Below, piece after piece: positions 820 through 64,000 of a stretch of DNA of 64,000 bases. Where the stretch lies: NCBI GenBank assembly GCA_043817155.1, contig JBDRHE010000059.1, positions 97 through 64,096 of the forward strand. The letters run 5' to 3'. The DNA comes from Candidatus Omnitrophota bacterium. Lineage in GTDB: Bacteria > Omnitrophota > Gorgyraeia > JABMRN01 > RBG-13-46-9. Position numbers and translations under genes: made by a program. Every line of letters begins with the position of its first letter. Position 1 is the first letter of the stretch. The notes beneath the pieces were generated by a model. It ran no database searches, was not told the origin of the DNA, and was given only the letters and a program-made list of their open reading frames with translations.

Positions 820-1737
820 TTAATGCGGGAAGATTGAAAGGATAAAGCCTGATATGTTTCCCCTGGCTCTAAGGAGATAATTCCTATCTCTTAGAAATAT
901 ACCCTTAACAAGGTTATTCAGGAATAGACCGAAACAGGCCCAAAGGCATAGCGATGAGGAGAGTTCGGCGTTCTTCTTCACAAAGTACAACCTGTTTAAT
1001 ACCTGCATCCTTCCGAGAGTAACACTTGCCCCGGTAACGCTTTCAGAGTTCGATAAGTGCCTTACCCTGGCATCGGCAACGACAAATAACTTAAAACCCT
1101 TGCCGACTCTATAGCTGAAGTCAAGGTCTTCGCAGTGCGCATAGCCTGTGAATTTCTCATCGAAACGGAATTTTTCGAAGACCTGCCTCCGGTATACCAT
1201 TGCGCATCCGCTCAACCATCCGACTGGGATAGTCTCGGCAACTTGGCACTGCTTGCTTTGGAAGCCGGAACGCATAACCATTCCGGGTCTCTCAGTATTC
1301 ACCAGAAATAGCTTTTCGAGGATTGAAGGTCTTCTGAGTCTATCACTCACGTTATTGAATGATGCCCCGCCCGTATCAGGGCTTGCGCTCTCCCAGAATT
1401 TCATCATATTTAAGAGCGAATCCTTCTCTATGACTATATCGTCATCGAAGAAGGCAATAAGGGTTGCCGTATCTCCCAAAGCCTTTACTCCGATGTTCCT
1501 CTGCATCGGCAGCGAAGCGGGCCTCTTCTCAACATATCTTATATTCAGATCCTTAAATCGATCTCTCTTCGAAAGACCTTTAAGAGGAGTCTCTCCCCCA
1601 TCTATAATTAACGTCTCTCCGGGCTTAAAAGCCCCCTGATCGATGCTCTCCAGAAGACGTATAAGCTCATTAGGTCTATCCTTCGTAGCAATAATTATGG
1701 TCAGTTCTTCTTTAGATAGCATTCTTAAACAGCGCAT
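820..1737 (-). CDS. Glycosyltransferase family 2
   Basis: N-terminal TIIIATKDRPNEL...DGGETP motif typical of the GT2 GT-A fold; DxD-like region FFDDD. Confidence 0.75.
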   Translation of the reverse strand: MRCLRMLSKEELTIIIATKDRPNELIRLLESIDQGAFKPGETLIIDGGETPLKGLSKRDRFKDLNIRYVEKRPASLPMQRNIGVKALGDTATLIAFFDDDIVIEKDSLLNMMKFWESASPDTGGASFNNVSDRLRRPSILEKLFLVNTERPGMVMRSGFQSKQCQVAETIPVGWLSGCAMVYRRQVFEKFRFDEKFTGYAHCEDLDFSYRVGKGFKLFVVADARVRHLSNSESVTGASVTLGRMQVLNRLYFVKKNAELSSSLCLWACFGLFLNNLVKGIFLRDRNYLLRARGNISGFILSIFPH

Positions 1738-2815
1738 ATCGCAATCTTGTCAAAATATCCTCGATCACAAGCTTCGGCATACATCGAATGTTATATGGAT
1801 AACCGCAAGAGCAACCGGCGCATCTCTTATAAAACATATTCTTCTTTGCCGCCCTATACCTCGTTTCCTTTCTTAAATCCGCTAAAGGCCGGTCTTTAAG
1901 ATTTCCAAAGGCCCCCATCGCATAACATCCTCCCAGAAGATTACCGTAAGGATCTATATTTATCCTGTCCTGGGAGCTTACGCATGGTATTTTTCCCTGA
2001 CGCGGATCATCGAAATAGCGCTCAATATATCCAATAGCCGGAAAGCTCAGCAATAGAGACTTTGGCTTTTTGCGCTTCGCGGCTTTGAGTATCTCCAGAA
2101 ATCTGTCGAATTCTTTGTTCTTTCGTATCCAGAACGTCTCCCTGTTCTCATCCACTTGGAAGATAGAAGAATTCTTATCCAGGAGACACACAGAAACGGG
2201 TAGAGAAAGGCTATCGGCTAGATCTTTGACATCTTCAAAGTGCCGTATCGTATCTTTCATAAGCGTAAAATTTACCGACGCGTCTATCCCCTTCCTCTTT
2301 TTCATATTTGAAATCAATATAGCGGACTCTTCCACCTTTGCGAAAGAACCGGATATCCCCCGAATTTTTGCGTACTCGTCTCCGAGCGCATCTATTGAGA
2401 CAACTACGGACCGCAAACCCGCTTTTATGAGGCCATCTAGCCTTCCTTCATCCAGAAGCATTCCATTTGTGGTTAGCCCTACGGTGAGACCATTTCGCCG
2501 GCTGAACGAAATAAGATCTTCGAGGTCTCCCCTTAAGAGAGGCTCCCCGCCGCTAAAGTGCACATTCTTAATTCCATTCTTCTTAAAGTCTTGGATGATC
2601 TTCTTCCATTCATCGGCTGACAACTCTCTTCCGGAAGGCTGCCTCCATTGCCGGCACATAACACATCTCAGATTACATCTATTTGTTATCAAGATGTTGC
2701 ACGAGCTGGCTTTGATCTCGAAAAGCCGATACGTCCCCGGCATTCCGGTTAAAAGACCGGTCTTTATTATTGTCGGAATATAATTTGCAACTATCTTTCG
2801 TATCCGTTTATACAT
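1712..2815 (-). CDS. Radical SAM protein with C-terminal SPASM-like Cys cluster
   Basis: CNLRCVMC (CxxxCxxC); glycine-rich SAM motif FSGGEP; C-terminal CAGCSCGYPYNIRC; TAATG stop/start overlap with the upstream gene at 2815. Confidence 0.8.
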   Translation of the reverse strand: MYKRIRKIVANYIPTIIKTGLLTGMPGTYRLFEIKASSCNILITNRCNLRCVMCRQWRQPSGRELSADEWKKIIQDFKKNGIKNVHFSGGEPLLRGDLEDLISFSRRNGLTVGLTTNGMLLDEGRLDGLIKAGLRSVVVSIDALGDEYAKIRGISGSFAKVEESAILISNMKKRKGIDASVNFTLMKDTIRHFEDVKDLADSLSLPVSVCLLDKNSSIFQVDENRETFWIRKNKEFDRFLEILKAAKRKKPKSLLLSFPAIGYIERYFDDPRQGKIPCVSSQDRINIDPYGNLLGGCYAMGAFGNLKDRPLADLRKETRYRAAKKNMFYKRCAGCSCGYPYNIRCMPKLVIEDILTRLRYALFKNAI

Positions 2816-4740
2816 TAATATTCGATCCTGTAAATAACAAAACGGGCGCCGGGTTTTTTATGGAAACGGCCGGGGGTATTTTTAAAAGCTTTGACTAATG
2901 TTACGTTCTTTTGCGGCAATAGTCTCTCGATAGACGGCATCGCCTCTTCGTCACTGGTATTGGGGCCCTGATTATAATAGATAAGCTCCGGCTGATATTC
3001 GATGGCGAGCTTGCGGAGACTCTCGGCGCGATCCTCCTCTTTTGTAGCTGCGGTTTTAATATTCTTATAGCCGGAGGGGATATAAACGCGCGTATAGTGG
3101 TCAGCTACGATCGTTGTATCAGCAGGAATATTATTAGCCCACCATTCTCTTACATCATAGATAACATCCTCATACCTGCGAAGCTGGAGCAATCTTAACG
3201 ATGTCGTTTCAATTGCATTCATTAATATCTGCGCAAAAAATAATATGCCGAGAAAAATAAGAACCAACTTTTTGAGCAATACTTTGCCGTTAAGTAAAGT
3301 CCCCAGCATACAAAACCCCTGCATGCTTAAAATGGACATAGCAATAAAAAATGGGAGTATATTATGGTCTTCCAGCCTTATCATGGAAAACATAACGACA
3401 AAGGATGGCACGATAAATATAAGCAAAATGAGTCTTTTGTATAATTGCAATAAACTATTTTTTTCAATACCGGGCTGACCGGCTTTGACCTGAAGTGAAG
3501 ATATATCCCGCTTATGTTTCTGATAGAGCTCAACGCCTAAATAAACTATAAATAAAGCAAAGATGATCGGGACGAATGCCGTGATGATGTGGACTATATT
3601 TTGCAACAAGATATATGCTATTCCTTTTTCAGACAACATATTGGTAGCCCTGCTTGTAGTGGCAACAGGACCTAACTGCGCGTATATAGTGATAAAATGC
3701 TGCGGGGTAATAATCCATCTAAAACCAAAAAAGAGAAGAAAACCCGTAAACATTGCGCATGCGCGCAATGAATGTGAATTCAGCTCATTAACGAACGATA
3801 TGATCTTCTTCAGTAAGGGATTCCTGGTTTTATCCAAGACAAGGATTGCCAGCGATAAAAGAATAAGACAAAATCCGGCCAAAGACATAGCGAGCATAAG
3901 CCTATTTTCTAATAAACTTCCCAAAAAACCAAACTGTTCATACCATGTAAAGCCGGAAGACTTACGCACGTAAAAACGGATAAAAATGAGAGGAAGTATG
4001 CCTACAATTAAGCCGATCGATGACGGGAAGACCCATGATAACTTAAGTTCGCGGAAAACCTCTTTACCGGAAATACTATTTTGGTAACGCTTTGCGAAAA
4101 ACATAGAGGCGATTACGGCTGCCACCAAAAAGATGCCGGCAAATTTAACCAAAAAACCGATTGCCGCGCAGGCGACCGCTATATATAGATTCCTCCTTCT
4201 AAAGGGATTCTCGCAAGCACGCAGAGCGTAATCCAATCCTATTATCATGATCAGTAAAACTAGAGGTTCGGGCTTTGCGTTGGTGAAGAAATAGGCCACA
4301 GCCGGCCTAACCGCTAAGAGCGCAACAGCCAATGCCGGTTGCCAACCATCCCCAAAATGGTATTTTACCAGGCGCCATAGGAAAAAAAACGCCAGGATCC
4401 ATGAAAGGAGGTGCATCCAGCGTAATATCATAATAAATGTTCCCGGTGTAAAATGGATCAAATTGGATGGAATGAGTCGAGCAAAATCCGCCAAATAACG
4501 CATTTCGAGTCCGTAATCAAAATCCCATTGAAAGCTCGCCCTCTTTTCACCGGTAAAATAGAACCAGGTAAGATCCATCATCCCGCCTTCATCGCCATTA
4601 AAATAAACGATCATATTCGGGTCGTTTATATTGTCGTTCATGCTGGGTGCTATTAATAGGAAAGTAGCGGCGCATATGACTGCCATAAATGCCCCGGCCG
4701 CCATTTGTTTATAAAAGATTCTTCTATTTATTTCGGACAT
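2815..4740 (-). CDS. Polytopic membrane protein, putative GT-C-fold glycosyltransferase (ArnT/PMT-like) or glycan polymerase/ligase
   Basis: More than 10 predicted hydrophobic helices plus a C-terminal soluble domain; start placed at an internal Met to avoid overlap with the upstream ORF; family assignment tentative. Confidence 0.4.
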   Translation of the reverse strand: MSEINRRIFYKQMAAGAFMAVICAATFLLIAPSMNDNINDPNMIVYFNGDEGGMMDLTWFYFTGEKRASFQWDFDYGLEMRYLADFARLIPSNLIHFTPGTFIMILRWMHLLSWILAFFFLWRLVKYHFGDGWQPALAVALLAVRPAVAYFFTNAKPEPLVLLIMIIGLDYALRACENPFRRRNLYIAVACAAIGFLVKFAGIFLVAAVIASMFFAKRYQNSISGKEVFRELKLSWVFPSSIGLIVGILPLIFIRFYVRKSSGFTWYEQFGFLGSLLENRLMLAMSLAGFCLILLSLAILVLDKTRNPLLKKIISFVNELNSHSLRACAMFTGFLLFFGFRWIITPQHFITIYAQLGPVATTSRATNMLSEKGIAYILLQNIVHIITAFVPIIFALFIVYLGVELYQKHKRDISSLQVKAGQPGIEKNSLLQLYKRLILLIFIVPSFVVMFSMIRLEDHNILPFFIAMSILSMQGFCMLGTLLNGKVLLKKLVLIFLGILFFAQILMNAIETTSLRLLQLRRYEDVIYDVREWWANNIPADTTIVADHYTRVYIPSGYKNIKTAATKEEDRAESLRKLAIEYQPELIYYNQGPNTSDEEAMPSIERLLPQKNVTLVKAFKNTPGRFHKKPGARFVIYRIEY

Positions 4741-4766
4741 TATATCTGCTTTTCCTTCATCATTTT

Positions 4767-5192
4767 TTAATCTTCCCAGTAATAGCCGCATTTTATATAC
4801 CGGCATTCATCTTTTTTGTCAAATGGGTACACCTTGCATATAAAAGGAAGAGCGTCAAAACCTTTCTCCTTCCATAATAGGCATATCTCTGTCTTATAAT
4901 CCCAATATCTGCAAACGAACTGAAACCTTCCGATTCTGTGAGAAGGGGCATAGCCGCAACACCCGCATTTTTTGCACTGGCCCTTCCTTGTTTTGAGGCT
5001 ATTTTTTATATATCCCTTGCGAAAGATCATATAAAAATGTCTTCTTAATTGGCACTTAATACACGATGGAGATAATAAGCTCTTCTTGTGGTTCAGCATT
5101 GCTCTTTGTTTATCCGAGACTTTAAGATCGCCGTTCACTGCCGAATCTTTATGACATGCGTTTACCTGCGAATTATTTGAAATCGAACACAT
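4767..5192 (-). CDS. YkgJ/UPF0153-family Cys-rich (CxxCxxCC) putative Fe-S/Zn-binding protein
   Basis: CKKCGCCGYAPS resembles the YkgJ CGACCTAPS signature; further conserved Cys (CRYW, CKVYPF, CGYYW). Confidence 0.55.
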   Translation of the reverse strand: MCSISNNSQVNACHKDSAVNGDLKVSDKQRAMLNHKKSLLSPSCIKCQLRRHFYMIFRKGYIKNSLKTRKGQCKKCGCCGYAPSHRIGRFQFVCRYWDYKTEICLLWKEKGFDALPFICKVYPFDKKDECRYIKCGYYWED

Positions 5193-5261
5193 CTAAACTT
5201 GCTCCTTTCATCTTTATCAGCATGAGCTTTTAAAAAGTAGCTGAACAAAGTTACTATGCGC

Positions 5262-6788
5262 CTACCCCTTCATTATATTAGTGCGTTCTGCCTTCTTCCT
5301 TGTTATGCTAAGAATTAAAACCTTAAGAGATATTGTGAGAGCTCTTTTAAATATTATAAGGAAAAATTTTGTGAAGGCTAACAAGACATCCGGCTTAAAA
5401 TACCACCTCTTCGGTAGCGATAGCACGCCTCCGCCGGATAGGGGTGATTTAAAGAGCATCTTATATAAGATTCGCGGTCTAAAATAGAACGTTAAGTTAG
5501 CCACGATCGTATCGAATATAAGGACCGGTGGATGTGTATCTTTAGGAACATACGACAAATCATCACCCTGCATATAGTGTTGGTTGCTGAAATTGGTCCA
5601 ATTCTCATGAATATGGAGCCCATTCTCCTCTTTGCCTATCCTAAAAAGCTCTGTGCCCGGATAGGGTATCGCGATGTTGAATCTGGCGCCATCAAGAGGC
5701 AGCTTGCACATCAATTTTAGCGTATCGTAGCGGTCTTTCCGTGTTTCCGACGGTAAGCCAAATATTAAAGATGCATCCGCTAAAATACCGACTTCATTAC
5801 ACATCTTTATGGCTCTCAGGTTATCTTCTACCAGCTCTTTTTTGTTAATAATTTTCATAAGACGCTCTGATCCGGTTTCAACGCCAAATGCCAAAGATAC
5901 AAAATTACAATCTTTAAGCCTTTCAAGCATCTCATAATCAACCTCTTTGCCCCTCGATGTGCCGATAAAGGCGACTTTCTTGTGGTATCCGCTGGCTATT
6001 ATCGCGTCCAATAATTCATACAGTCTTCTTTTGTTTATTGTAATACTGTCATCTATAAACCATATCTTCTTCTGGCCGTATCTATCAACAAGTTTTTTTA
6101 TATCCTCTACTATGCGCGTAGCGGAATAAAATCTATATGCCTTTCCGGATATTGCCCTTTGAGAGCAGAAGATACAATCGAATGGACATCCCCTTGAGCT
6201 TATGATCGTCCCAAAATCTCCATAGCTCTCACTGTCTTTTTCAAACAATTCATAATAAAACGGAGGAAGATCGTCGAGATTCTTTATCAGCTCTCTATCT
6301 GAATTATGAAAAACCTTAGAATCTGTTTTATATGATATGCCTTTAATATCTTTATAATCTTTTCCATTTTTGAGACATTCATAGAGTTCGCCGAGTGTCA
6401 GCTCCCCTTCCTTTCTTACGGCTACATCAGCTCCGGATTTAATAAGTATATCTTCGGGCAGAACACTCGGGTGTATCCCCCCTAAGACAACAGTCACTTT
6501 CGGATCGATAGATTTTACCATCCCTGTAAGCTCGATAACCCTCTTTGTCGTAATAGTGAGATTCGGGATTCCCACAATTCTGGGATGTTTTAATTTTGCA
6601 AGCTCGCCTTCCAGTCTATCCTGTGTCAACTCAACGATCTGCTCATCGATGACACCCACCTCATCTTTATTCTTCTCACGAAGATATGCCCCGAGAAAAC
6701 CGATGGATGTCGGAAAACAGGCGTATGTAAATTTCTTAACAACTGTTGGCTGCGATATTTTATCTACGGCGGGATTAATGAATAACAT
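5262..6788 (-). CDS. Cobalamin-binding radical SAM enzyme (class B-like)
   Basis: N-terminal B12-binding-like Rossmann region (VVLGGIHPSVLPED) followed by SSRGCPFDCIFCSQ; GGAGG-like RBS upstream. Confidence 0.8.
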   Translation of the reverse strand: MLFINPAVDKISQPTVVKKFTYACFPTSIGFLGAYLREKNKDEVGVIDEQIVELTQDRLEGELAKLKHPRIVGIPNLTITTKRVIELTGMVKSIDPKVTVVLGGIHPSVLPEDILIKSGADVAVRKEGELTLGELYECLKNGKDYKDIKGISYKTDSKVFHNSDRELIKNLDDLPPFYYELFEKDSESYGDFGTIISSRGCPFDCIFCSQRAISGKAYRFYSATRIVEDIKKLVDRYGQKKIWFIDDSITINKRRLYELLDAIIASGYHKKVAFIGTSRGKEVDYEMLERLKDCNFVSLAFGVETGSERLMKIINKKELVEDNLRAIKMCNEVGILADASLIFGLPSETRKDRYDTLKLMCKLPLDGARFNIAIPYPGTELFRIGKEENGLHIHENWTNFSNQHYMQGDDLSYVPKDTHPPVLIFDTIVANLTFYFRPRILYKMLFKSPLSGGGVLSLPKRWYFKPDVLLAFTKFFLIIFKRALTISLKVLILSITRKKAERTNIMKG

Positions 6789-6806
6789 TATCCTCTACCT
6801 TTCTAT

Positions 6807-7553
6807 CTAATGTTTCTTTCCTACACATATGAGACCAACGCCAAACGGAAAATTTATAAACTTGAGCATCTTTGACTCAATTCTCAATATGCGATATAGA
6901 ATCTTATTTAGAAGCCGCGGCACATAAAAAACATCGAGTAAAAATCTATCTTCTTTCGGTGCGCAAAAATAGCCGTATCTCTGCATTATCCTTATTGCCG
7001 CTATACCCGGGAACAGAAATGAATTCACATAACTCAGCTTCTTTATACTGAAATCGCTCTCTTGCATAATTTGTTTTAAGCTTCGACTCGTATATCTCCT
7101 CTTGTGATGAGCAAGATCGTCGTGGCGGCTCCATAAAAACTGGAAAGCGGAAGTCAATATAACGAGATGTCCGTCCTTCTTAAGGATCCTGTGCATCTCC
7201 TTAAGGAACGCCTCCTCTTTCGCGATATGTTCGATCAGACAAAAAGCTATAATGGTAGAAAATGAGTTGCGTTTAAAACCGGCATTCTCGGCTGATGTCC
7301 TTACCAGGCCGCGTATACCCCTTTTTTTGCAGAAGGCAACGGCTTCCTCTGAAATATCCGCCCCGTATACATTCCCGAAATGTCCCAGCGTCCTGGTAAG
7401 CCCTCCTGTCCCGCATCCGATGTCCAGAATCGCTACATCTTTCTGACTCGTGCAGAACCTATTGAGCATATCACCGCACATCCGCCTCATGCCCATGGTC
7501 CACCAGTGATCCTTTTCGAATTCGTACCACTGTTTATATATATCGGATTCCAT
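6807..7553 (-). CDS. Class I SAM-dependent methyltransferase
   Basis: Motif I VAILDIGCGTGGLT; post-I acidic GADISEEA; N-terminal HWW typical of this MTase subfamily. Confidence 0.8.
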   Translation of the reverse strand: MESDIYKQWYEFEKDHWWTMGMRRMCGDMLNRFCTSQKDVAILDIGCGTGGLTRTLGHFGNVYGADISEEAVAFCKKRGIRGLVRTSAENAGFKRNSFSTIIAFCLIEHIAKEEAFLKEMHRILKKDGHLVILTSAFQFLWSRHDDLAHHKRRYTSRSLKQIMQESDFSIKKLSYVNSFLFPGIAAIRIMQRYGYFCAPKEDRFLLDVFYVPRLLNKILYRILRIESKMLKFINFPFGVGLICVGKKH

Positions 7554-7571
7554 GCATGCACCTTAAGAAGA

Positions 7572-8420
7572 TTACAGATCTGAGTAATTTATCAGCACAA
7601 TGTTATTAAGGCCGACTATCTCTTTCATTTCTTCGCTCATAAGAAGATCGTATTCCCGCACCCAATCGCAAGCCCACCCGTGTAAGTCCTTCAAAAACCC
7701 GTATCTTTTGCTGATCTCAAGGTTGTCGCTACCTGGATGAAAACCTATTTCCGTAACCCCTGGTCCGATGCGCGGTAAAACACGCCTCATATAAGAAGCA
7801 TCCATATTCCCGCTTCTAAAAAACCCGAGGAATCGGTCGGGACTCCGGTATCTTGTCTTGCGCAATACATTAACATATCTCGTAAAAAATGCAAATCCTA
7901 TCTTCACAAGATCGATTTCGCGATATTCATACCACGGAATATTAAGCGCCCTTATCCTTTGGACGCCATATTTTTTCAACAATGGGCTTAATATCTTAAA
8001 AATCGGCGGAAAAAAGTGAATGTGCTGATGACTGTCCAGATGCGTGGGCACGAGTCCTGAATCGATAAATCTGGCTATCTGAGTTTCGCATTCCACTTTG
8101 ATATGCTCCGGATTGATCTTTCGCTTAAATATCTTTGCGCATAGCTTAGAATAGTCTCCGGGTAACCTGCCGTTATCCTCGACTATCGACGGTATCTTTT
8201 CAGCCGGAGCAAGAGGCCTCTCTCCGGTCAATATAAGGTGAACTCCCACACCAAGATCTTTGTTTCTTTTTGCTATAGCTACGGCATCTTCGAATTCCTC
8301 GCCGTTGACTGCCAGTGATGCGCTCGTCAACATGCCCTCTCTATGCGCTTTTTCAACAGAAGTATTGATAGACACGTGCAATCCGAAATCATCCGCGTTT
8401 AAAATTAGACGTTTCTCCAT
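7572..8420 (-). CDS. ChbG/YdjC-family carbohydrate deacetylase (HpnK-like)
   Basis: LILNADDFGLH ... HLDSHQHIH motifs characteristic of the YdjC family; start set at MEKRLIL immediately after the upstream stop. Confidence 0.7.
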   Translation of the reverse strand: MEKRLILNADDFGLHVSINTSVEKAHREGMLTSASLAVNGEEFEDAVAIAKRNKDLGVGVHLILTGERPLAPAEKIPSIVEDNGRLPGDYSKLCAKIFKRKINPEHIKVECETQIARFIDSGLVPTHLDSHQHIHFFPPIFKILSPLLKKYGVQRIRALNIPWYEYREIDLVKIGFAFFTRYVNVLRKTRYRSPDRFLGFFRSGNMDASYMRRVLPRIGPGVTEIGFHPGSDNLEISKRYGFLKDLHGWACDWVREYDLLMSEEMKEIVGLNNIVLINYSDL

Positions 8421-8422
8421 CC

Positions 8423-9244: not shown

Positions 9245-9249
9245 TTTTG

Positions 9250-10233: not shown

Positions 10234-10264
10234 ATTTCGCGCTCCTTATCGTTTGTTTTATAGA

Positions 10265-11794: not shown

Positions 11795-11801
11795 GTGCGT
11801 T

Positions 11802-12443: not shown

Positions 12444-12444
12444 A

Positions 12445-13365: not shown

Positions 13366-13369
13366 ACTA

Positions 13370-15155: not shown

Positions 15156-15179
15156 GCCTTTCAGTTCTTTATCAAAGAT

Positions 15180-15938: not shown

Positions 15939-15950
15939 TTACTCCTCAAA

Positions 15951-45032: not shown

Positions 45033-45034
45033 CT

Positions 45035-57051: not shown

Positions 57052-58057
57052 ATTTAGCAGCCTCCTTCAAATTGAATATATTGTACGCGTCTAATGGTTT
57101 AGGCCTATCTACGTTAGGCATAATATACGTATCAATAAACTCCTTGCTCTCCCCGCACAAACAGGACGGGTATTCCCCGTTAAACCAGGCGCTGCTTAAT
57201 AAACTTTCGCGCATCTCGCCAAGTGTTTTGTCGCGAATATTTCCAAGTGTAAACTGCATAAAATTGCAGGGAAGAAAGTGTCCGTCTGCAGATAACGCCA
57301 TAAATTCAGTGCCCGCAGGACAGTGGTCTTTCTCTCCGGAGTATATATCCCTATTCACCATTCTCTGCCCGTTCTTTAGCACCGGGGAATCTATCTGGAG
57401 TTGCTTAATATATCTGGAGTCTTCGGGGTTTACAAGGAGCTCTCTTCTGCCATCCCACTTGCCCCACGGCTCCGCTATCTGTACCTCCAGTCGTATACCT
57501 TTGGACTTAGCGTATTCATATGCTTTCTTAAAGCCGGTGTTATATAGCGATTTGTGCGTTACAACAATAGAGATTGAAACCAATAGCCCTTCTGACAACA
57601 CATAATCTATAGATTCAAGCACCCTCTTATAAGAGCCGGTCCTCCTGTTTGCATCATGTTCCTCCTCTATACCGGAATCGAGACTGAAAGCGATCTTATC
57701 AACCTTGAGACTCTTAAGCCAACGAATCTTATCCAGAGACATATTCCATCCGTTTGTAACGACGTTCAGATAGGTCTCGTCCGGATAACAAGAACGCAGT
57801 ATCGTTTCAAGGCGTTCAGGATCTTCAATCGGCTCGCCTCCCTGAAATACATAGTGGAATACTCCCAGGTTATATGCTTCGTCCAAAGTACTCTTCAATA
57901 TGTTCATTTCTACAGGCTTTACATGTGCAAAGGTTTCGGCGTAACAGTGAGTACACCTCATATTGCAGCGGGGAGTAACGTCAAGCGCAATAGTCCTTAA
58001 GGCCCCATTCTTATGTTCGTATTGCTTTTTATGTAACCTATTTTTTTCAGAATACAT
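57038..58057 (-). CDS. Radical SAM / SPASM-domain enzyme
   Basis: TPRCNMRCTHCYAE; C-terminal CPAGTEFMALSADGHFLPCNFMQF...CLCGE. Confidence 0.8.
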   Translation of the reverse strand: MYSEKNRLHKKQYEHKNGALRTIALDVTPRCNMRCTHCYAETFAHVKPVEMNILKSTLDEAYNLGVFHYVFQGGEPIEDPERLETILRSCYPDETYLNVVTNGWNMSLDKIRWLKSLKVDKIAFSLDSGIEEEHDANRRTGSYKRVLESIDYVLSEGLLVSISIVVTHKSLYNTGFKKAYEYAKSKGIRLEVQIAEPWGKWDGRRELLVNPEDSRYIKQLQIDSPVLKNGQRMVNRDIYSGEKDHCPAGTEFMALSADGHFLPCNFMQFTLGNIRDKTLGEMRESLLSSAWFNGEYPSCLCGESKEFIDTYIMPNVDRPKPLDAYNIFNLKEAAKYERV

Positions 58058-58070: not shown

Positions 58071-59180
58071 TTAAACAAATTCCAGGTGTTCTCTATCCTG
58101 TTCTAAATATTCTAAAACAAGCTTGTTCTTTACATTCGCCACACAGTGATGGTTGCATGCCGCTCGGGGATCAATTTTAAAGAATTTGCTTTTATCCAAA
58201 AACCAGAAATCCTTAAACCTTCTCTCTTTTATAGATCCGATCAAGCCGTCTTTCAGGTTATATGCTTTGTCCTGGCACGGATATATATTCAGGTCTGCGC
58301 CGATGACAGGGAGAATCTGAAGATACGGACACCATGAATACTCTTTGTTGAATCTCTCTTCAAGGGTATGGTATGAATCGTTTATCTCAAAACCATCATC
58401 GGCAAAGTCATTCACCATTCTCCCGATCGCTTCTTTAACCGTATCAAATATGGAACTGTGATAAAGATTGTTCTCTGCGCCGTCATTGCTGACAATACAG
58501 GGTGAGATCTTCACATTATCTATTCCAATATCCTTAAGTCTTTTGACAAATTGGTATATATGAGCAGCGTTAACCCTATCGACTATTATGCTGACGCCCA
58601 GAATGCATTTGCCGCCCAATTTTTTGAAGCGCTCTATATTACTCATTACCTTTGCAAATTCCCGCCTATCCACACCCCTGTATCCGGAGTAGCTCTCTTC
58701 ATCCCACCCATCCATTGAGACACGAAGCCATGTTCCGTAACGCGCAAAGATCGCAGCCAAATCGCCATCCAACAGTGATCCGTTCGTCAATGCTGCAAAT
58801 TTGACCGAGCTCGATCGCAACCTGTTAATAGCTTCCGTAAGGTGAGGGTAGCAGAGGGGTTCCCCCCCTCCGCTAAAGGTAACGGACTTAACCCCCATCT
58901 CTACTATGTCATCCAATATCTCCATCACTTTCTCCCTGGGAATCTGGTCTCTCCTATTCATATCCTTCCCGAGTTGCAGCCCGTCCACCCTGTATGCACA
59001 ATATCTACAATTGTGATTACATATGTTTGTTGGCTTTATCCTTATATGGATGGGGTTCATCACCCTGTCTACAGAGGGCGAGAGAGAGTCTATCTTATCC
59101 ATATAATGGAATATCTTAAGATTCGAGTATATAACCTTCTTATGACAATTCCTGTTCCTAGTCGAAGTATATGAACTCAT
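58071..59180 (-). CDS. Radical SAM enzyme with C-terminal Cys-rich (SPASM/twitch-like) region
   Basis: TNICNHNCRYCAY; C-terminal CPYLQ...YPCQD...CNHHC; start uncertain, one candidate Met follows an AAGGTGAT RBS-like sequence. Confidence 0.7.
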   Translation of the reverse strand: MSSYTSTRNRNCHKKVIYSNLKIFHYMDKIDSLSPSVDRVMNPIHIRIKPTNICNHNCRYCAYRVDGLQLGKDMNRRDQIPREKVMEILDDIVEMGVKSVTFSGGGEPLCYPHLTEAINRLRSSSVKFAALTNGSLLDGDLAAIFARYGTWLRVSMDGWDEESYSGYRGVDRREFAKVMSNIERFKKLGGKCILGVSIIVDRVNAAHIYQFVKRLKDIGIDNVKISPCIVSNDGAENNLYHSSIFDTVKEAIGRMVNDFADDGFEINDSYHTLEERFNKEYSWCPYLQILPVIGADLNIYPCQDKAYNLKDGLIGSIKERRFKDFWFLDKSKFFKIDPRAACNHHCVANVKNKLVLEYLEQDREHLEFV

Positions 59181-59820
59181 AATCACCTTTATATCCAAAC
59201 TCATTAAACAACCATATCCACTCTTCGGGTCTAAAGAATCCCTCGCAAGTAAGCGCCCAGCACTGGAGGTTCGTAAGCTCCTCCTCGGTTCTATAGCTCT
59301 CAACTGCTATGTATTTATATTTACCGACCCTCTCGATCTCCTTCAAAGATGACTTTAGGTCGTTTATAAGAAGATTGTGCAGGGTTGTTATGGATATTAC
59401 AAGATCAAACTCTCCGTCCTTAAATGGGAATTTATCCTCGGCCCTATATACAAAGAGAGACTCCCTTATCTCCTCCTTTGCATTCTCTATGGCATATTTT
59501 GAAACATCGAAACCCATAACGCTTGACAGCGGAAGTAGCTTTTTAAACTCATAAAGCAGAAAGCCCTTTCCGCAACCCACATCCAGGATCCTGGCCTTTT
59601 GGGGAAGACCATACAACTCTTTAAGTCTCTCCGCGACAACGCTCCAGCGCCCGTCGTATCTGTACCCGCCGTAGCCATACCTTCTCTCCCCATCCCAGTA
59701 TTCTTTCCCATATTCCCTGGCGGTCTTCATACATCCGGCTTTACTGTTTGCCATTCTACCTGTATAGTCTCTTTTTGTCTTCTTATGCAACGGGTTTATT
59801 GCGCTAATCAATCTTCCCAT
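59158..59820 (-). CDS. Class I SAM-dependent methyltransferase
   Basis: ILDVGCGKGFLLYEF; MGFDVSKYAIE; start uncertain (several in-frame Met between 59754 and 59847). Confidence 0.7.
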   Translation of the reverse strand: MGRLISAINPLHKKTKRDYTGRMANSKAGCMKTAREYGKEYWDGERRYGYGGYRYDGRWSVVAERLKELYGLPQKARILDVGCGKGFLLYEFKKLLPLSSVMGFDVSKYAIENAKEEIRESLFVYRAEDKFPFKDGEFDLVISITTLHNLLINDLKSSLKEIERVGKYKYIAVESYRTEEELTNLQCWALTCEGFFRPEEWIWLFNEFGYKGDYEFIYFD

Positions 59821-59857
59821 AAGGCCCTCTCTTCTCTTTAAAACCATTATCCTTTTG

Positions 59858-60907
59858 CTAAACAACCTTATCGCCTTGAGAGCGGGGCATATTCTGGACA
59901 TAACCACCCCCGTGGGTTGTAACCGCAAACTTTCCAAGGCACAAATTAACGAGCTCCTCAAAAGATGATTCACAATCCTTTATCTTTTGATATGCTCTCG
60001 GGATCCCATGTAGATCTACTCTATTACGGGCACGCAATCGGCCGACTTCGGCAAATCCTATTTTTGGCAATAACTTGTCATAATTAATGGAATGGCGAAG
60101 TGGTTTCAGCTTGGAGCTATCTCTTATGTAGAGATATCCTCCTTTACGCAGTACCCTGGATGTTTGAGACATGAGCCATAGAATGCCTGCAGAATTTATT
60201 TCGTTAAGTACCCATGTCGCGGTAATAAGATCTATAGAGCCACTCTCAACGATACCAAAATGCCATGACGGAATATGCTTAAGTCTATATTCAGGATGTT
60301 TGTTTACAAGCGCTTTGATGGAACTCTCGCTTAAGTTAAAATTCTCACATTCAACGACATCCAGATATATCGCTTCACCTCCTGACAAGAACCTGAAGAA
60401 GTCGCGTTGGATCGAATAGCTGTGCGGACTTGCTTCAAGGGCGTAAAAGTTAGAATCGAATCCTTTCCGACTATAAACGGCATGCGTGCCAAGACCCGGA
60501 CCAATGTCCAGATGGTTTATAGGAGAGCTTATTCCCCCACAAAAACTGCGCAATGCGCAATAATCCTGTGCCCTCACTACAGCATTGCACGTAACGCTCT
60601 TCTTGAAATCGTCTTCCATATCGCTTGGGAACGGAACGAAATGACGATATGCTTTAGATAGACACTCTTCGATGGTCCTTAGCATTTCATCATAGTCATC
60701 TGTCCTTATTCTCTCGGGTGTGGGGTACTGCTCAAAGAACATTGTAAGATACTGCAGGAATGCCTGCGGGCCATGAACAACCTCCACTTTTGACAGCTGA
60801 TCAGCATCAACCCAGGAGAACGGATTACCTATGCGATGTAGCTTCTCGCCATACGCCCAGCCCTGGCTTATAAAGGCCCTATTCAACGAACGAATAATAT
60901 CTTCCAT
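59858..60907 (-). CDS. Class I SAM-dependent methyltransferase
   Basis: HLDIGPGLGTHA motif I; LRKGGYLYIRD motif. Confidence 0.65.
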   Translation of the reverse strand: MEDIIRSLNRAFISQGWAYGEKLHRIGNPFSWVDADQLSKVEVVHGPQAFLQYLTMFFEQYPTPERIRTDDYDEMLRTIEECLSKAYRHFVPFPSDMEDDFKKSVTCNAVVRAQDYCALRSFCGGISSPINHLDIGPGLGTHAVYSRKGFDSNFYALEASPHSYSIQRDFFRFLSGGEAIYLDVVECENFNLSESSIKALVNKHPEYRLKHIPSWHFGIVESGSIDLITATWVLNEINSAGILWLMSQTSRVLRKGGYLYIRDSSKLKPLRHSINYDKLLPKIGFAEVGRLRARNRVDLHGIPRAYQKIKDCESSFEELVNLCLGKFAVTTHGGGYVQNMPRSQGDKVV

Positions 60908-60920: not shown

Positions 60921-62681
60921 TTACTGTATGCATCTTACCTTCTCTGACCCATCTACAGCCAGAGCCGAGAGAAAATGCCTGAAGACCAGACCGCTTAAAC
61001 TGACACCTGAATCATTAATTCTATTCAAGAATCGATCATATAATTTACTATAGAGCAACCTATAACGCCCATAGGTACTATCGAAAAAGCTACTTGCTTC
61101 CTCTCTCAATCTCTCATCCGTACAATCATCCGATATGAGATCTATTATGTTGTTGAAGTACTCATATTGCCGCTTGCCCACTTCTTTATTTAGTTGTTCG
61201 TAGTTATTCTTAAACTGCAGATACTCATCTTGCAACATTTCAAAAACCTTTCGATTCATCCTGTTAGTCATCCTTGCGATCAGGTTGCCTATATTTGTCT
61301 GTAATGAGTGTACTTCCCTGGTATTGGGAAAACGCACCAAGAGACTCTCCCAATGACCGGTAACGCGCGCCGCCAGTGGATCCCTTATCTTATACTTTGG
61401 CAATTCCCAGTGCCTGCCTGTTTCAATTACCCTCCCTTCTCTTTTAAGCCGATCATAGATCTCGGAATCCCGGATAAGCATTAAAACATTCGAAACAAAA
61501 TTTATATTGTCCGTAAAATCATATTTATGTAAAAATTCAATATTCTCTCTAAGCGTCTCCTCCGTAGAGTTTGGCCCAAACATAATGAAACCTGTTAATA
61601 CATAAAAGAGGTCGAGATCCCTTAAGATCTTTGCGGTGCGATGATTGTCTTCAACTGTTGCCTTCTTTCCGTAAAGCTTGATCTCACTATCGTTGGCAGC
61701 GTCAGATCCAATGATAACGACATCGACCCCTGCCTCCTTATATAGCTTTAAAAGCTCAATATCCTCTTCGCCCCTCCATGAATCACAGCGCAGATAGACC
61801 TTTGCGGAAAAGGGAACCCCGCGCCTTATAATGCCTTCGCAGATACGGCGCGATCGAACCTTCCCGAGTTTACCCGGATCCTCAAAGGAACTATCAGAAA
61901 AATTGAATACCCTGGCGCTGTAACGCTTGCTTAGGTACTCTACCTCATCGATTACCCTTTCCGGCGATCTTCCTCTCCACCTCTTACCCGCATGAACCTT
62001 GTGATAAAAGTTGACTGCGCAAAAACTGCAATTGCCTACACAGCCCCTGGAACTTATCATGCGCACACTCTCTATAAGACCGCCATCTACTAAATCCCTC
62101 TTTGCGTCTTCCAAAAGATCCCTTGCCGGAAAAGGTAATGTATCCAGGTCCTCTATAACGCATCTCTGCCTGTTTCTTATGATGTCGCCCGATTCATTTC
62201 GCCACACAAGCCCGTCTATCGAGTGGAGATCAGTTCTCTTGGCCCCTACTGCCTTTAATAGCTCCAGGGTCGTTACTTCACCTTCCCCCAAGATTATGAA
62301 ATCGTAAAGAGGTTCTTCTTTTAGTATCTCTTCCGACTTCGAGCACAGAAATGGGCCGCCAAAGATCGAGATCGACTCTGGTCTTACCGATTTGATCTTT
62401 GCGACTACCGTCCGAACCGGATGGTAATTTACCGTATTCAGCTGAAACCCATATATGTCCGCTGAGATCCCGGTTATCTCATTCTCATCGGTGATTAAGG
62501 CAAAAGTGTCACCCTCTCTTCTTACAAAGCATTGCTTGAATATTACATTATATTCCTGGTCTCTTAAGTACGCACCTACGCAAGCTATGCCGAGGGGAAT
62601 CTCCTGTTCATACTGGTAGTCGCCTTCTGTAACGACATTCATCATAGCAACTGTTAGATTGCGCGCACTCATACCTTGCAA
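60921..62681 (-). CDS. Cobalamin-binding radical SAM enzyme
   Basis: B12-like N-terminus (ISIFGGPFLCSKSEE); SSRGCVGNCSFCAV. Confidence 0.8.
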   Translation of the reverse strand: MQGMSARNLTVAMMNVVTEGDYQYEQEIPLGIACVGAYLRDQEYNVIFKQCFVRREGDTFALITDENEITGISADIYGFQLNTVNYHPVRTVVAKIKSVRPESISIFGGPFLCSKSEEILKEEPLYDFIILGEGEVTTLELLKAVGAKRTDLHSIDGLVWRNESGDIIRNRQRCVIEDLDTLPFPARDLLEDAKRDLVDGGLIESVRMISSRGCVGNCSFCAVNFYHKVHAGKRWRGRSPERVIDEVEYLSKRYSARVFNFSDSSFEDPGKLGKVRSRRICEGIIRRGVPFSAKVYLRCDSWRGEEDIELLKLYKEAGVDVVIIGSDAANDSEIKLYGKKATVEDNHRTAKILRDLDLFYVLTGFIMFGPNSTEETLRENIEFLHKYDFTDNINFVSNVLMLIRDSEIYDRLKREGRVIETGRHWELPKYKIRDPLAARVTGHWESLLVRFPNTREVHSLQTNIGNLIARMTNRMNRKVFEMLQDEYLQFKNNYEQLNKEVGKRQYEYFNNIIDLISDDCTDERLREEASSFFDSTYGRYRLLYSKLYDRFLNRINDSGVSLSGLVFRHFLSALAVDGSEKVRCIQ

Positions 62682-63613
62682 CCTTTGCGGTCGTATTTCA
62701 GTAAAGATACCGCAGCATCCATGATATGGCGTTTCGAAAGGCCGTTCAATTCTTTCATCTCCTGGTATGTTCCGTACCCCGAAGGGAATACACCTTTTAA
62801 CCCTAACCGTTTGAACCTGACAGGCATATTCCCCTCTTCGAGTATGACTTCGGCAACAGCGCTGCCTAAGCCACCGAAAATCGTATGCTCTTCAACAGTT
62901 ATAATGGTTCGGGTATCACGAGCCGCAGCCAATATGATCTCTTTATCTATCGGTTTTATAGTATGAATGTTTACCACCCTGGCGGAGATACCGGATTCCT
63001 CCAGCTCATATGCCGCCTCGAGAACATCCTTAAGTATACCGCCGGTGACTATAAACGTGATGTCCCGGCCTTCTTTCAAAGTTACGCCTTGTCCGGTTTT
63101 AAATTCATAATCTCTGCTATATATCTGTGGGCTCCCACCGGTTGCGAGCCTGATATAAACCGGGCCATCGATCTTTCGGGCCGCAAAGGTTATCTTTCTA
63201 GATTCCATCGGGTCGGCCGGGGAAAGAATTGTCATATTCGGCAAAGCCCTCATCAGGGCAATGTCCTCTACCGCATGATGCGTAGGACCTAAATCGCTGT
63301 ATACGAATCCTGCGCCTATGCCAACGAGTTTGACATTCATCTTCTGCATGCAAACATCATTTCTTATCTGTTCAAAGGCCCGCATGGTAAGAAAAGCGGA
63401 GATCGTATACGCAAAAGGGATCTTGCCGCATGAGGCAAGACCGGCCGCGACACTTACCATGTTCGCTTCGGAAATCCCGAAATTTAAGAATTGATCTGGA
63501 AACTCCTTGCGATATTTATCATACACAATAGCGCCGTTGTCCGCAACCAGGGCAAGGATCCTATTATCGTTCTTTGCCAGCCCATAGAGCGCCTCTATAT
63601 ATGCGTTTCTCAT
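62669..63613 (-). CDS. Transketolase, C-terminal (pyrimidine-binding) subunit of a split transketolase
   Basis: FLNFGISEANMVSVAAGLA...GPTHHAVEDIALMRALPNMTI is the transketolase Pyr-domain signature; ~314 aa matches the split-TK B subunit size. Confidence 0.85.
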   Translation of the reverse strand: MRNAYIEALYGLAKNDNRILALVADNGAIVYDKYRKEFPDQFLNFGISEANMVSVAAGLASCGKIPFAYTISAFLTMRAFEQIRNDVCMQKMNVKLVGIGAGFVYSDLGPTHHAVEDIALMRALPNMTILSPADPMESRKITFAARKIDGPVYIRLATGGSPQIYSRDYEFKTGQGVTLKEGRDITFIVTGGILKDVLEAAYELEESGISARVVNIHTIKPIDKEIILAAARDTRTIITVEEHTIFGGLGSAVAEVILEEGNMPVRFKRLGLKGVFPSGYGTYQEMKELNGLSKRHIMDAAVSLLKYDRKGCKV

Positions 63614-64000
63614 TATATCTTTTCCTCGAAATCGGCAATGTCCAGCTCTTTACACGCAATTTTCATCTCTTCGGCGTTTGGCAATCTGTAATGCCAGATA
63701 GGGGCATTTTCCATAAATGAGATCCCTTTGCCTTTAGTGGTATTGGCCACTACAAGGCCTGGTTTGCCCTTTCTGAAGGGAACATCTTTAAATACACCTA
63801 CCAGCTGTGAAACATCGTGACCGTCTACCTCTTCTACTTCCCACCCAAACGCCTTCCATTTATCGACCATCGGGTCCAGTGACACTATATTCTCGAGTCT
63901 GTCCATAGCTTGAAATCTGTTGTTGTCTATTATGACTACAAGGTTATCAAGCTTATGCTGCGGGGCAAATAGCGCAGCTTCCCATACCGAACCTTCCTGA
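63613..64000 (-). CDS. Transketolase N-terminal (ThDP-binding) subunit, 3' end only; gene continues beyond the window
   Basis: C-terminal part GKPGLVVANTTKGKGISFMEN...WHYRLP typical of the TK N-terminal subunit; reading frame open to the window edge. Confidence 0.7.
   Translation of the reverse strand, partial: QEGSVWEAALFAPQHKLDNLVVIIDNNRFQAMDRLENIVSLDPMVDKWKAFGWEVEEVDGHDVSQLVGVFKDVPFRKGKPGLVVANTTKGKGISFMENAPIWHYRLPNAEEMKIACKELDIADFEEKI

Follow-up and report, generated by a model that had tools for sequence, protein, structure and literature searches.

Here we analyzed a 64-kb stretch of contig JBDRHE010000059.1 from a Candidatus Omnitrophota bacterium (hereafter, the window), the minus strand of which carries a run of 57 genes. 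We consider it likely that the window is a co-directional, tightly packed and modular super-locus that makes, tailors and exports one or more heavily modified acidic surface glycans. Families, folds, gene order, synteny and conservation were read directly, and the substrates, order of steps, acceptor and number of products given below are predictions from them. Omnitrophota are widespread, mostly uncultured nanobacteria, many of which are thought to be host-dependent or predatory, and to our knowledge their surface chemistry has not been described.

On the minus strand, 56 complete open reading frames (ORFs) of at least 100 aa tile positions 820-63613. A partial ORF at 63613-63999 joins the next gene through a TAATG junction, giving 57 genes over more than 63 kb, and the run therefore extends past the upstream edge of the window. 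The summed ORF length divided by the span is 1.007 (i.e., approximately 100% coding density), all plus-strand ORFs are shadows within minus-strand genes, and no ORF longer than 75 aa lies downstream of 820. GC content is even (0.416-0.466), GC skew is negative across the whole window, and neither Rfam at the gathering threshold nor a tRNA scan found RNA genes in it. An earlier reading of the letters (the sequence-only reading) had described about 58 consecutive minus-strand genes; the run stands, with a count of 57 (56 complete and one partial). It had also stated that most junctions are overlaps of 1-4 bp. The junctions it named are all present (TAATG at 2815 and 4-bp overlaps at 22085, 37665, 46586 with a TTG start, 48777, 51512 and 54662), but "most" was an overstatement. 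With longest-ORF starts, eight junctions are at -4 and two at -1 (10/56); with the first start that keeps the overlap at or below 4 nt, these become 11 and two (13/56), and at least 36 of the 56 junctions are 20 nt or shorter. With longest-ORF starts, there are just two gaps wider than 100 nt, 27230-27426 (197 nt) and 43687-43802 (116 nt). The longest-ORF starts of the genes at 13370-14464, 16691-18319, 58071-59303 and 59158-59973 overlap the upstream gene by 116-182 nt; their real starts are probably internal and the proteins shorter than listed. One candidate internal start is the ATG at 18184, with a GGAGAGGGAAGG stretch upstream.

Profile searches of the window proteins against Pfam and NCBIfam reproduced exactly the enzyme tallies of the sequence-only reading. 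There are 12 radical S-adenosylmethionine (SAM) proteins (rSAMs), all with a CxxxCxxC motif: six have an N-terminal B12-binding domain, four have SPASM, and two are plain. With an N-terminal B12-binding domain, an rSAM core and the CxxxCxxC motif, the six conform to class B (cobalamin-dependent) enzymes, a class that also contains the non-methylases BchE, HpnJ and AprD4. The ten class-I SAM methyltransferases (MTs) include two weak matches (at 14283 and 59858) and one TylF-like protein. Five CTP_transf_3 cytidylyltransferases, one of which carries a fused GT2 domain, occur with two sulfotransferases, one NodU/CmcH-type carbamoyltransferase, one YdjC deacetylase and two ATP-binding cassette (ABC) exporters with fused transmembrane and nucleotide-binding domains (TMD-NBD). 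These two exporters constitute dedicated export or flipping machinery, their substrate being predicted. The glycosyltransferase (GT) set consists of three GT2 genes, a TIGR04372 GT, a GT-C enzyme and two GT-B-fold proteins, alongside nucleotide-sugar genes (the five CTP_transf_3 genes, an NTP_transferase, an epimerase and an RmlD-like reductase). Paralogues within the window share 22-33% identity, except for MT6 and MT7 at 43%. Because identity is so low, we reject an origin of the enzyme count by recent tandem amplification and take it to represent distinct activities. The earlier statement that all genes are devoted to sugars is not demonstrable for u141, u446 and u228, and partly for u509.

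All 56 complete window proteins were compared with homologue neighbourhoods and 43 genome loci, with 48 loci entering the count of a conserved cassette. This cassette (GFO, Ldh_2, a B12-binding rSAM, CTPb, a GT2::cytidylyltransferase fusion, u653 and often ABC1) recurs in approximately 27-29 of the 48 loci, some of them from hosts labelled as Latescibacterota, Saganbacteria, Desulfotomaculaceae, SAR324, Leptospiraceae and Candidate Phyla Radiation (CPR) according to their metagenome-assembled genomes (MAGs). A u653 relative without the remaining cassette genes is present in an Elusimicrobia locus (L027; such labels are ours). Most of the non-cassette window genes are rare in the compared loci. 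To judge from sequence comparison, the core of the locus family is conserved and the tailoring shell around it varies. The module order of the window is found again in a co-directional locus of at least 42.5 kb, L049 and L051, which are contiguous on one contig. In order, it contains the transketolase halves, MTs and rSAMs, an RmlD-like reductase, the TIGR04372 GT (GT4372), an ABC exporter and a block of nonulosonic acid (NulO) genes. Next come a CTP_transf_3 gene, a B12-binding rSAM, a u228-PFTS fusion, the cassette and a second ABC exporter, followed by rSAMs and CTPa-like and B12b-like genes. The cassette lies in the third of five modules of the window (M3, 35852-20304):

34854-35852, minus: SPASMc, rSAM with SPASM (Pfam)
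32808-34841, minus: u677, GT-B-fold protein of a rare, mostly Omnitrophota family
31354-32865, minus: B12d, B12-binding rSAM (Pfam)
30128-31390, minus: GFO, Gfo/Idh/MocA oxidoreductase, cassette (Pfam; 44-67% identity in 27 loci)
29081-30118, minus: Ldh2, Ldh_2 2-hydroxy/2-oxo-acid dehydrogenase, cassette (Ldh_2 357 bits; 43-77% identity in 28 loci)
27427-29097, minus: B12c, B12-binding rSAM, cassette gene in Omnitrophota (52-61% identity in relatives)
26120-27229, minus: MT4, class-I SAM MT (Pfam; 38-52% identity in 8 loci)
25390-26133, minus: CTPb, CTP_transf_3, cassette (Pfam; 49-69% identity in 28 loci)
24016-25383, minus: GT2CTP, GT2::CTP_transf_3 fusion, cassette (Glycos_transf_2 at residues 6-160, CTP_transf_3 at residues 246-376)
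22085-24046, minus: u653, GT-B-fold protein of ~650 aa, cassette (25-47% identity in cassette loci)
20304-22088, minus: ABC1, fused TMD-NBD exporter of MsbA type (Pfam; 4-bp overlap with u653)

The closest solved chains of CTPb are NeuA CMP-Neu5Ac synthetases (1e-14), ahead of KdsB (5e-6), and the best half-transporter matches of ABC1 in the PDB are MsbA (7e-97) and Sav1866. B12c is nearest to 9ccb and AprD4 among solved chains, weakly, and Ldh2 scores below the NCBIfam equivalog cut-offs. The identity of GT2CTP across 29 loci is mostly 50-70%, down to 36% in L041. The u653 family forms 1181 clusters at 50% identity among 1.84 billion proteins and has no Pfam model; u677 has only approximately 20 homologues among 5.8 billion proteins. 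Profile-profile comparison of u677 and u653 shows no relation (probability 2.6%), so that they are not paralogues detectable by sequence. The match of u653 to BFO_1060, the NulO transferase of Tannerella (E=0.0018, 17 bits), is a lead, and we do not claim membership of that family. In M3, redox editing, C-methylation and CMP activation of an acidic keto-sugar would be followed by its transfer, on the cytoplasmic side of the membrane, to a lipid-linked acceptor, and then by flipping. More speculatively, and with doubt, we suggest that the cassette including its MT is an undescribed pathway that makes, CMP-activates, transfers and flips a C-methylated ulosonic acid or related keto-acid sugar, that the six B12-binding rSAMs across the locus add C-methyl groups to surface-glycan sugars or alter them by other radical reactions, and that the pathway might run here without a NeuB-type synthase.

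The sequence-only reading had proposed a surface glycan containing ulosonic acid. Synthesis, tailoring and export of a surface glycan are supported as the best reading, whereas no NeuB-type synthase lies in the window; with neither a synthase nor the core pathway there, the ulosonic-acid part comes from family membership and synteny rather than from the window alone. Its support consists of CTP_transf_3 membership, the NeuA-like nearest matches of CTPb, a PtmE-like gene, a WbuXYZ triad, and NeuB in three syntenic relatives. In those relatives (L049, L050 and L052), a NulO block directly follows the pair of GT4372 and ABC exporter and contains NeuB, a DegT aminotransferase, an acetyltransferase and epimerase/dehydratase-family genes, with Epimerase_2 (2-epimerase) also in L050 and L052; in L049, a MarR gene stands between the exporter and the block. 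A cytidylyltransferase comes after the block, followed in L050 by HisF-HisH-WbuX. The corresponding position in the window has no NulO block: only B12e separates ABC2 from CTPd-HisF-HisH-WbuX. The NulO core is either elsewhere in the genome or lost.

Several observations weigh against the super-locus reading or its acidic-sugar component. Pfam, a signature scan and tblastn (with NeuB of L049 and L050) found no NeuB-family synthase (PF03102), PseI/LegI, KdsA or NeuC in the 64 kb, and no core of 4,6-dehydratase, aminotransferase, N-acetyltransferase and 2-epimerase. There are no DegT, Hexapep or Epimerase_2 matches by Pfam, the nearest gene being a generic epimerase (105.7 bits on LegB; cut-off, 475). 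All rSAMs and cytidylyltransferases are below every NCBIfam equivalog cut-off (for the PseF model, the five cytidylyltransferases score 39-136 bits; cut-off, 205.7), and therefore we assign them no substrate. The u653 protein resembles 2-epimerases as much as transferases by Foldseek. An initiating phosphoglycosyltransferase (WecA/WbaP type), Wzy, WaaL and Wzx are absent by Pfam among the 57 window genes; the missing phosphoglycosyltransferase, Wzy and WaaL genes may lie outside the window. Promoter-like sites in 1-20000 number 42 (41.4 expected), making the scan uninformative, and terminator-like sites in the same region are mildly raised (27 vs 18.2 +/- 4.1).

The strongest competing explanation is that the run consists of several independent glycan loci placed head-to-tail (e.g., O-antigen, capsule, and lipid A or protein modification), each with its own promoter and product. 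We regard this as a real possibility, though with less than an even chance of being correct. Each of the two ABC exporters comes right after its own glycosyltransferase-like gene, a separate polyprenyl-phosphate/GT-C branch is present, and the gaps of 197 and 116 nt could house promoters. The cassette also occurs without the other modules in many loci, and in L050 and L052 the GT4372 module has no cassette within 10 kb of it. However, the same module order is contiguous in L049 and L051, most junctions are too tight for independent promoters, and the explanation overlaps with the super-locus reading, which already allows several products. Indeed, the two exporters and the separate polyprenyl-phosphate/GT-C branch suggest several products or assembly routes. 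For this reason, the earlier proposal of one heavily decorated glycan is retained for its decorations, since the capacity for amidination, methylation, sulfation and carbamoylation is encoded, and not for its single product.

For the super-locus, we propose that synthesis and tailoring of the sugars take place in the cytoplasm, probably while they are nucleotide-linked. The nonulosonic acids of Tannerella receive all their modifications as CMP-sugars, ahead of transfer, as shown for CMP-Pse5Am7Gra, and nonulosonic acid transferases are a poorly known enzyme class (PMC5420450). The B12-binding rSAMs would catalyze C-methylation or rearrangement, and the SPASM rSAMs possibly perform oxidation, epimerization, deoxygenation or decarboxylation by analogy with BtrN, DesII and BlsE. 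An amidotransferase, N/O-methyltransferases, sulfotransferases and the carbamoyltransferase would be the other tailoring enzymes. Assembly of the sugars on lipid carriers would fall to GT-A and GT-B enzymes, and the flipping that follows to MsbA-like half-transporters.

The most upstream module (M1, 63999-48777) contains the following genes:

63613-63999, minus: transketolase N-terminal (thiamine diphosphate-binding) half, partial (Transketolase_N E=3e-11; 69% identity to L050 TktN)
62669-63613, minus: TktC, transketolase C-terminal half (Transket_pyr, Transketolase_C; 74% identity to L050)
60921-62681, minus: B12f, B12-binding rSAM of class B (B12-binding and Radical_SAM; CVGNCSFC; below all NCBIfam cut-offs)
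59858-60907, minus: MT9, probable class-I SAM MT, weak (Methyltransf_23 26.8 bits, E=4.8e-6, cut-off 27)
59158-59973, minus: MT8, class-I SAM MT (Methyltransf_31/11/25; 70% identity to L049)
58071-59303, minus: rSAM2, radical SAM (Radical_SAM 90 bits; CNHNCRYC; 60% identity to L049)
57038-58057, minus: SPASMd, rSAM with SPASM (Radical_SAM and SPASM)
56290-57051, minus: TylF-like O-methyltransferase (TylF 54.4 bits; Methyltransf_24)
55341-56285, minus: RmlD-like NDP-4-keto-sugar reductase (RmlD_sub_bind 117.5 bits; NCBIfam rmlD 106.9, cut-off 224)
54662-55348, minus: MT7, class-I SAM MT (Pfam; 43% identity to MT6)
53991-54665, minus: MT6, class-I SAM MT, tandem paralogue of MT7 (Pfam, paralogue comparison)
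52749-53957, minus: MT5, class-I SAM MT, 402 aa (Methyltransf_23/11/12)
51512-52732, minus: GT4372, TIGR04372 glycosyltransferase (NCBIfam 234 bits, cut-off 45; same name in the source annotation)
50571-51515, minus: SulfT2, sulfotransferase (Sulfotransfer_1 31.7 bits)
48777-50546, minus: ABC2, fused TMD-NBD ABC exporter (ABC_membrane and ABC_tran)

The partial ORF is the C-terminal part of the Transketolase_N half. Upstream of the transketolase, HldE-like and GmhA-like (SIS) genes are present in L050 and L052, and a GT9 heptosyltransferase-family gene in L049. Since such genes precede it in these relatives, the split transketolase would feed a heptose-type sugar; by tblastn, GmhA, HldE and heptosyltransferase are absent from the window, which ends inside the transketolase gene. 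ABC2 shares 48-52% identity with its counterparts right after GT4372 in L049 and L050. In our proposal for M1, the split transketolase probably supplies sedoheptulose-7-phosphate for a modified heptose. The RmlD-like reductase, the TylF-like MT, five class-I MTs, one B12-binding rSAM and two more rSAMs would tailor the heptose-type sugar, the TIGR04372 GT would transfer it, the sulfotransferase would sulfate it, and ABC2 would export the product. MT6 and MT7 (53991-55348), in tandem with a 4-bp overlap, are the sole recent-looking duplicates of the locus. In L052 (Omnitrophota MAG GCA_030649895.1, 3919-5766), the homologous locus contains an insertion: an IS110-family transposase comes after a TktC gene shortened to 164 aa.

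The second module (M2, 48780-35797) follows ABC2:

47320-48780, minus: B12e, B12-binding rSAM (Pfam; 64-69% identity to L001 and L003)
46586-47308, minus: CTPd, CTP_transf_3, most divergent of the five (Pfam 28.2 bits; PseF 39, cut-off 205.7)
45702-46589, minus: HisF/WbuZ-like cyclase subunit (His_biosynth 217.6 bits; WbuZ 274.8, cut-off 299.7)
45035-45718, minus: HisH/WbuY-like glutaminase subunit (GATase; TIGR01855 189.7, cut-off 105.4)
43803-45032, minus: WbuX, N-acetyl sugar amidotransferase (TIGR03573 361.6 bits, cut-off 203.2)
42346-43686, minus: u446, no family (55% identical homologue beside the cassette in the Leptospiraceae locus L041)
41321-42349, minus: SulfT1, sulfotransferase (Sulfotransfer_3 95.1 bits)
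40648-41334, minus: u228, N-terminal piece of a split u677-type protein (37% identity to the N-terminal part of a 620-aa gene in L051)
39380-40594, minus: PFTS, C-terminal piece, related to PFTS-motif polysaccharide proteins and u677 (TIGR04417 E=7.8e-7, below the cut-off)
38335-39399, minus: CBS-domain sugar-1-phosphate nucleotidyltransferase (CBS and NTP_transferase)
37665-38303, minus: CTPc, CTP_transf_3 with the best PseF-like score of the five (Pfam 81.7 bits; PseF 136.4, cut-off 205.7)
35797-37668, minus: CarbT, NodU/CmcH-type carbamoyltransferase (Carbam_trans_N 118 bits, Carbam_trans_C 175 bits)

The WbuX, HisH-like and HisF-like genes are contiguous (43803-46589) and make up a WbuXYZ-type system. 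The nucleotidyltransferase at 38335-39399 is the gene that we take to be similar to C. jejuni PtmE. We propose that M2, with its two cytidylyltransferases, amidotransferase, B12-binding rSAM, sulfotransferase, CarbT, PtmE-like enzyme and split GT-B-like protein, activates and decorates a CMP-ulosonic acid, on which WbuX/HisH/HisF would make an acetamidino group. The u228 and PFTS genes are neighbours in different frames, 53 nt apart, that jointly correspond to one 620-aa gene in L051 (1010-2872), with PFTS being 44% identical to that gene and 27% to u677; the pair stems from a frameshift or split in the gene of a u677-type GT-B-like protein, or from misassembly there. No match to u446 was found in Pfam, NCBIfam or the PDB. 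When the Pfam search was relaxed to E values up to 1, u141, u228, u446, PFTS and u677 still had no usable match.

The fourth module (M4, 20326-10265) lies downstream of the cassette:

19193-20326, minus: SPASMb, rSAM with SPASM (Pfam)
18177-19211, minus: SPASMa, rSAM with SPASM (Pfam)
16691-18319, minus: B12b, B12-binding rSAM (Pfam)
15951-16694, minus: CTPa, CTP_transf_3 (Pfam; PseF 79.5 bits; 58% identity in L051)
15180-15938, minus: SDR, short-chain dehydrogenase (adh_short, adh_short_C2)
14283-15155, minus: MT3, class-I SAM MT, weak (Methyltransf_23 28.7 bits)
13370-14464, minus: 2HDH, D-2-hydroxyacid dehydrogenase, phosphoglycerate dehydrogenase (PGDH)-like (2-Hacid_dh_C 167.8 bits; PGDH 211, cut-off 454)
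12445-13365, minus: Epim, NAD-dependent sugar epimerase/dehydratase (Epimerase 149 bits; best NCBIfam LegB 105.7, cut-off 475)
11802-12518, minus: HAD, HAD-family phosphatase (HAD_2)
10265-11794, minus: u509, probable GT-B-like surface carbohydrate protein (weak TIGR04326, 1.9e-7, and NeuC, 1e-3)

This module groups a further cytidylyltransferase with rSAMs, dehydrogenases, a phosphatase and a GT-B-like protein. The nearest solved chains of SPASMa are the sugar-modifying rSAMs BlsE, DesII and BtrN, weakly (E 1.6e-8 or weaker), and u509 has weak Glycos_transf_1 and Epimerase_2 matches in the relaxed Pfam search. The longest ORF of 2HDH overlaps the upstream gene by 182 nt, and therefore its true start is probably internal.

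The last module (M5, 10233-820) ends the run:

9250-10233, minus: GT2b, polyprenyl-phosphate GT type, ArnC/PgfS-like (Glycos_transf_2 107 bits; three C-terminal transmembrane (TM)-like segments)
8423-9244, minus: MT2, class-I SAM MT (Pfam)
7572-8468, minus: YdjC-family carbohydrate deacetylase (YdjC 207.8 bits; HpnK 187.6, cut-off 232.6)
6807-7553, minus: MT1, class-I SAM MT (Pfam)
5262-6788, minus: B12a, B12-binding rSAM (Pfam; best NCBIfam BchE, ApyD and HpnJ, all below cut-offs)
4767-5192, minus: u141, small protein, no family (ORF only)
2815-4806, minus: GTC, GT-C-fold polytopic GT, ArnT-like (PMT_2 40.1 bits; 11 TM-like segments)
1712-2815, minus: rSAM1, radical SAM (Radical_SAM 103 bits; Fer4_12)
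820-1737, minus: GT2a, GT2 glycosyltransferase, last gene of the run (Glycos_transf_2 32.9 bits)

M5 is possibly an Arn/Lgm-like branch, in which GT2b would load an (N-acetyl)aminosugar on polyprenyl phosphate and YdjC would deacetylate it; two MTs and B12a would modify the carrier-linked aminosugar, with the GT-C enzyme catalyzing its periplasmic transfer. The Arn/Lgm/Gtr pattern (polyprenyl-phosphate GT2, deacylase and GT-C) is present in domains and topology, with the highest NCBIfam scores of GT2b, those for PgfS (270 bits) and ArnC (171 bits), both under their cut-offs and no flippase found. GTC is 50-54% identical to proteins in L010 and L018 and has no solved relatives by sequence; u141 has no match in Pfam, NCBIfam or the relaxed Pfam search. 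Alternatively, GT2b, YdjC and B12a might modify a membrane lipid head group, similar to hopanoid HpnI-HpnK-HpnJ (bacteriohopanetetrol cyclitol ether). The triad of GT2, deacetylase and B12-binding rSAM mirrors HpnI/K/J and recurs in L026, where a 67% identical B12a homologue stands beside GT2b and YdjC counterparts; YdjC reaches 187.6 bits on HpnK, and HpnJ is third for B12a (170 bits, after BchE and ApyD). We nevertheless consider this unlikely, as GT2b reaches 18.8 bits on HpnI, far less than on PgfS and ArnC, B12a falls well short of the HpnJ cut-off (577.6), a GT-C transferase follows GT2b, and there is no squalene-hopene cyclase or HpnH/G in the window.

A Campylobacter-like flagellin or pilin O-glycosylation island, with cytoplasmic transfer of CMP-linked legionaminic or pseudaminic acid (Leg/Pse) derivatives to a filament protein, is very unlikely in our view. 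Its attraction is that the PtmE-like, CMP-NulO synthetase-like, PseA/WbuX-type and MT content resembles the C. jejuni island and that fusions with a Maf-type (MptE-like) part, described below, lie near the cassette in six related loci. By Pfam, however, no MptE-like/Maf, flagellin or pilin gene is present in the window, and the two lipid-flippase-type exporters, polyprenyl-phosphate GT and GT-C imply lipid-linked periplasmic assembly. Least credible, and likewise very unlikely, is a biosynthetic gene cluster for a diffusible metabolite (aminoglycoside, nucleoside or glycolipid type), in which the rSAMs and B12-binding rSAMs would work as in gentamicin, apramycin or fosfomycin biosynthesis and the ABC pumps would provide self-resistance and export: the density of rSAMs and B12-binding rSAMs, the NodU/CmcH-type carbamoyltransferase and the weak nearest matches to AprD4, BlsE, DesII and BtrN are of that kind, and Omnitrophota MAGs express predicted biosynthetic gene clusters (PMC9902471), but Pfam found no polyketide synthase, nonribosomal peptide synthetase, 2-deoxy-scyllo-inosose synthase or phosphoenolpyruvate mutase in the window, the polyprenyl-phosphate GT, GT-C, MsbA-type flippases, WbuXYZ triad and five CMP-sugar synthetase homologues are of envelope type, syntenic relatives carry NeuB blocks and GT9, HldE and GmhA-like (SIS) genes, with a Polysacc_synt (Wzx-type flippase) gene in L001, and surface polysaccharide loci typically pair a conserved core with a variable shell, as this family does.

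Some further observations concern the cassette and the non-coding regions. HpcH/HpaI class-II aldolases adjoin the cassette in seven loci (L006, L008, L011, L027, L032, L039 and L043), and in six (L011, L012, L017, L018, L023 and L032) it has as a neighbour an HMGL-like aldolase fused to an MptE-like (Maf-type) part. Both are absent from the window and are possible alternative keto-acid-sugar synthases or transferases. The CPR-labelled contigs L016 (Nomurabacteria), L022 (Uhrbacteria) and L040 (Vogelbacteria) carry CTPb, GT2CTP and u653 with up to 69% identity, reflecting either horizontal transfer or mis-binned Omnitrophota contigs. The 197-nt gap between B12c and MT4 (27230-27426) is strongly structured, with a GC-rich hairpin GGATCCCCGCTTTCGCGGGGATG and a raw folding energy of -69.5 kcal/mol. 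The gap may act as an internal terminator, attenuator or processing site, or it may be a small repeat element, and no copies were found in the other loci. The 820 nt downstream of the last gene contain three consecutive long nested inverted repeats (~57-239, 313-587 and 627-821; region 40-830), with outer arms of 20-25 nt that are 88-100% complementary. As RNA, this region forms three long hairpins (-352.9 kcal/mol vs -200.8 +/- 5.4 for shuffles; z = -28). It has no Rfam or tRNA match and no copy elsewhere in the window or in 52 loci, and could represent palindromes resembling miniature inverted-repeat transposable elements, a structured RNA or a recombination site.

In agreement with the sequence-only reading, our literature search found no characterized cluster of this composition; the locus is yet recurrent in Omnitrophota and not a one-off. 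There are precedents for glycan loci with NulO, acetamidino and methyl tailoring, whereas a locus family this rich in rSAMs and B12-binding rSAMs is undescribed in the literature searched, as is the cassette of GFO, Ldh_2, B12-binding rSAM, cytidylyltransferase, GT2::cytidylyltransferase, GT-B and ABC genes. We know of no envelope glycan in which C-methylation or radical sugar chemistry by B12-binding rSAMs has been described, such chemistry being known from antibiotics and lipids. Strain-variable polysaccharide cassettes have been reported in Omnitrophota genomes, without the detail of this locus (bioRxiv 10.64898/2026.06.07.730766). With more than 63 kb and a cassette that other phyla share, the locus suggests that much is invested in exotic acidic sugars at the cell surface. 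If the B12-binding rSAMs do act on nucleotide- or lipid-linked sugars, radical C-methylation and rearrangement would extend to envelope glycans, and glycoengineering would gain new enzymes from these proteins. The u653 and u677 families and the GT2::cytidylyltransferase fusion offer concrete candidates for testing.

Among known systems, the C. jejuni flagellin island and the Leg/Pse (nab) clusters of Vibrio, Legionella, Leptospira and Tannerella share with the window CMP-NulO synthetase-family, PtmE-like and PseA/WbuX-type proteins, MTs and hypervariable content. Tailoring at the CMP stage would be expected here too, as in Tannerella (PMC5420450). Unlike these clusters, the window has neither NeuB/LegI/PseI nor the LegB/C/H/G core nor Maf, and its cytidylyltransferases are below the PseF equivalog cut-off; it adds 12 rSAMs (six with B12-binding domains), sulfotransferases, a carbamoyltransferase, MsbA-type exporters and a GT-C branch. 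The triad resembles the acetamidino systems WbuX/WbuY/WbuZ of E. coli O145, PseA and archaeal AglX/Y/Z, with WbuX above its cut-off and HisH/HisF-like partners adjacent in the same order, although the HisF-like subunit is just under the WbuZ cut-off (274.8 vs 299.7). With ArnC/ArnD/ArnT, Bordetella LgmA/LgmC/LgmB and Gtr, M5 shares the logic of a GT2 polyprenyl-phosphate GT with C-terminal TM segments, a deacylase and a polytopic GT-C. LgmC is reportedly YdjC-like. The lgmABC genes are required for glucosamine modification of Bordetella lipid A (PMC4993483). In the window, by contrast, two MTs and a B12-binding rSAM lie between the corresponding genes, no flippase was found, and all scores are sub-equivalog.

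Similar to KdsB/WaaA/MsbA of the lipopolysaccharide inner core, the window has an adjacent CTP_transf_3 enzyme, GT-B-fold protein and fused ABC half-transporter. However, CTPb is nearer to NeuA than to KdsB, u653 has 650 aa and is not a GT30 member, and the window adds the GT2::cytidylyltransferase fusion, GFO, Ldh_2 and a B12-binding rSAM. GenK and GenD1 are sugar-modifying rSAMs of antibiotic pathways. The antibiotic rSAMs AprD4, DesII, BtrN and BlsE and the hopanoid enzymes HpnJ and HpnR have the same architectures as the window rSAMs (B12-binding with rSAM; rSAM with SPASM/twitch). The matches of the window proteins to them are weak, with none at a family cut-off, and their setting is an envelope-glycan locus instead of an antibiotic or lipid cluster.

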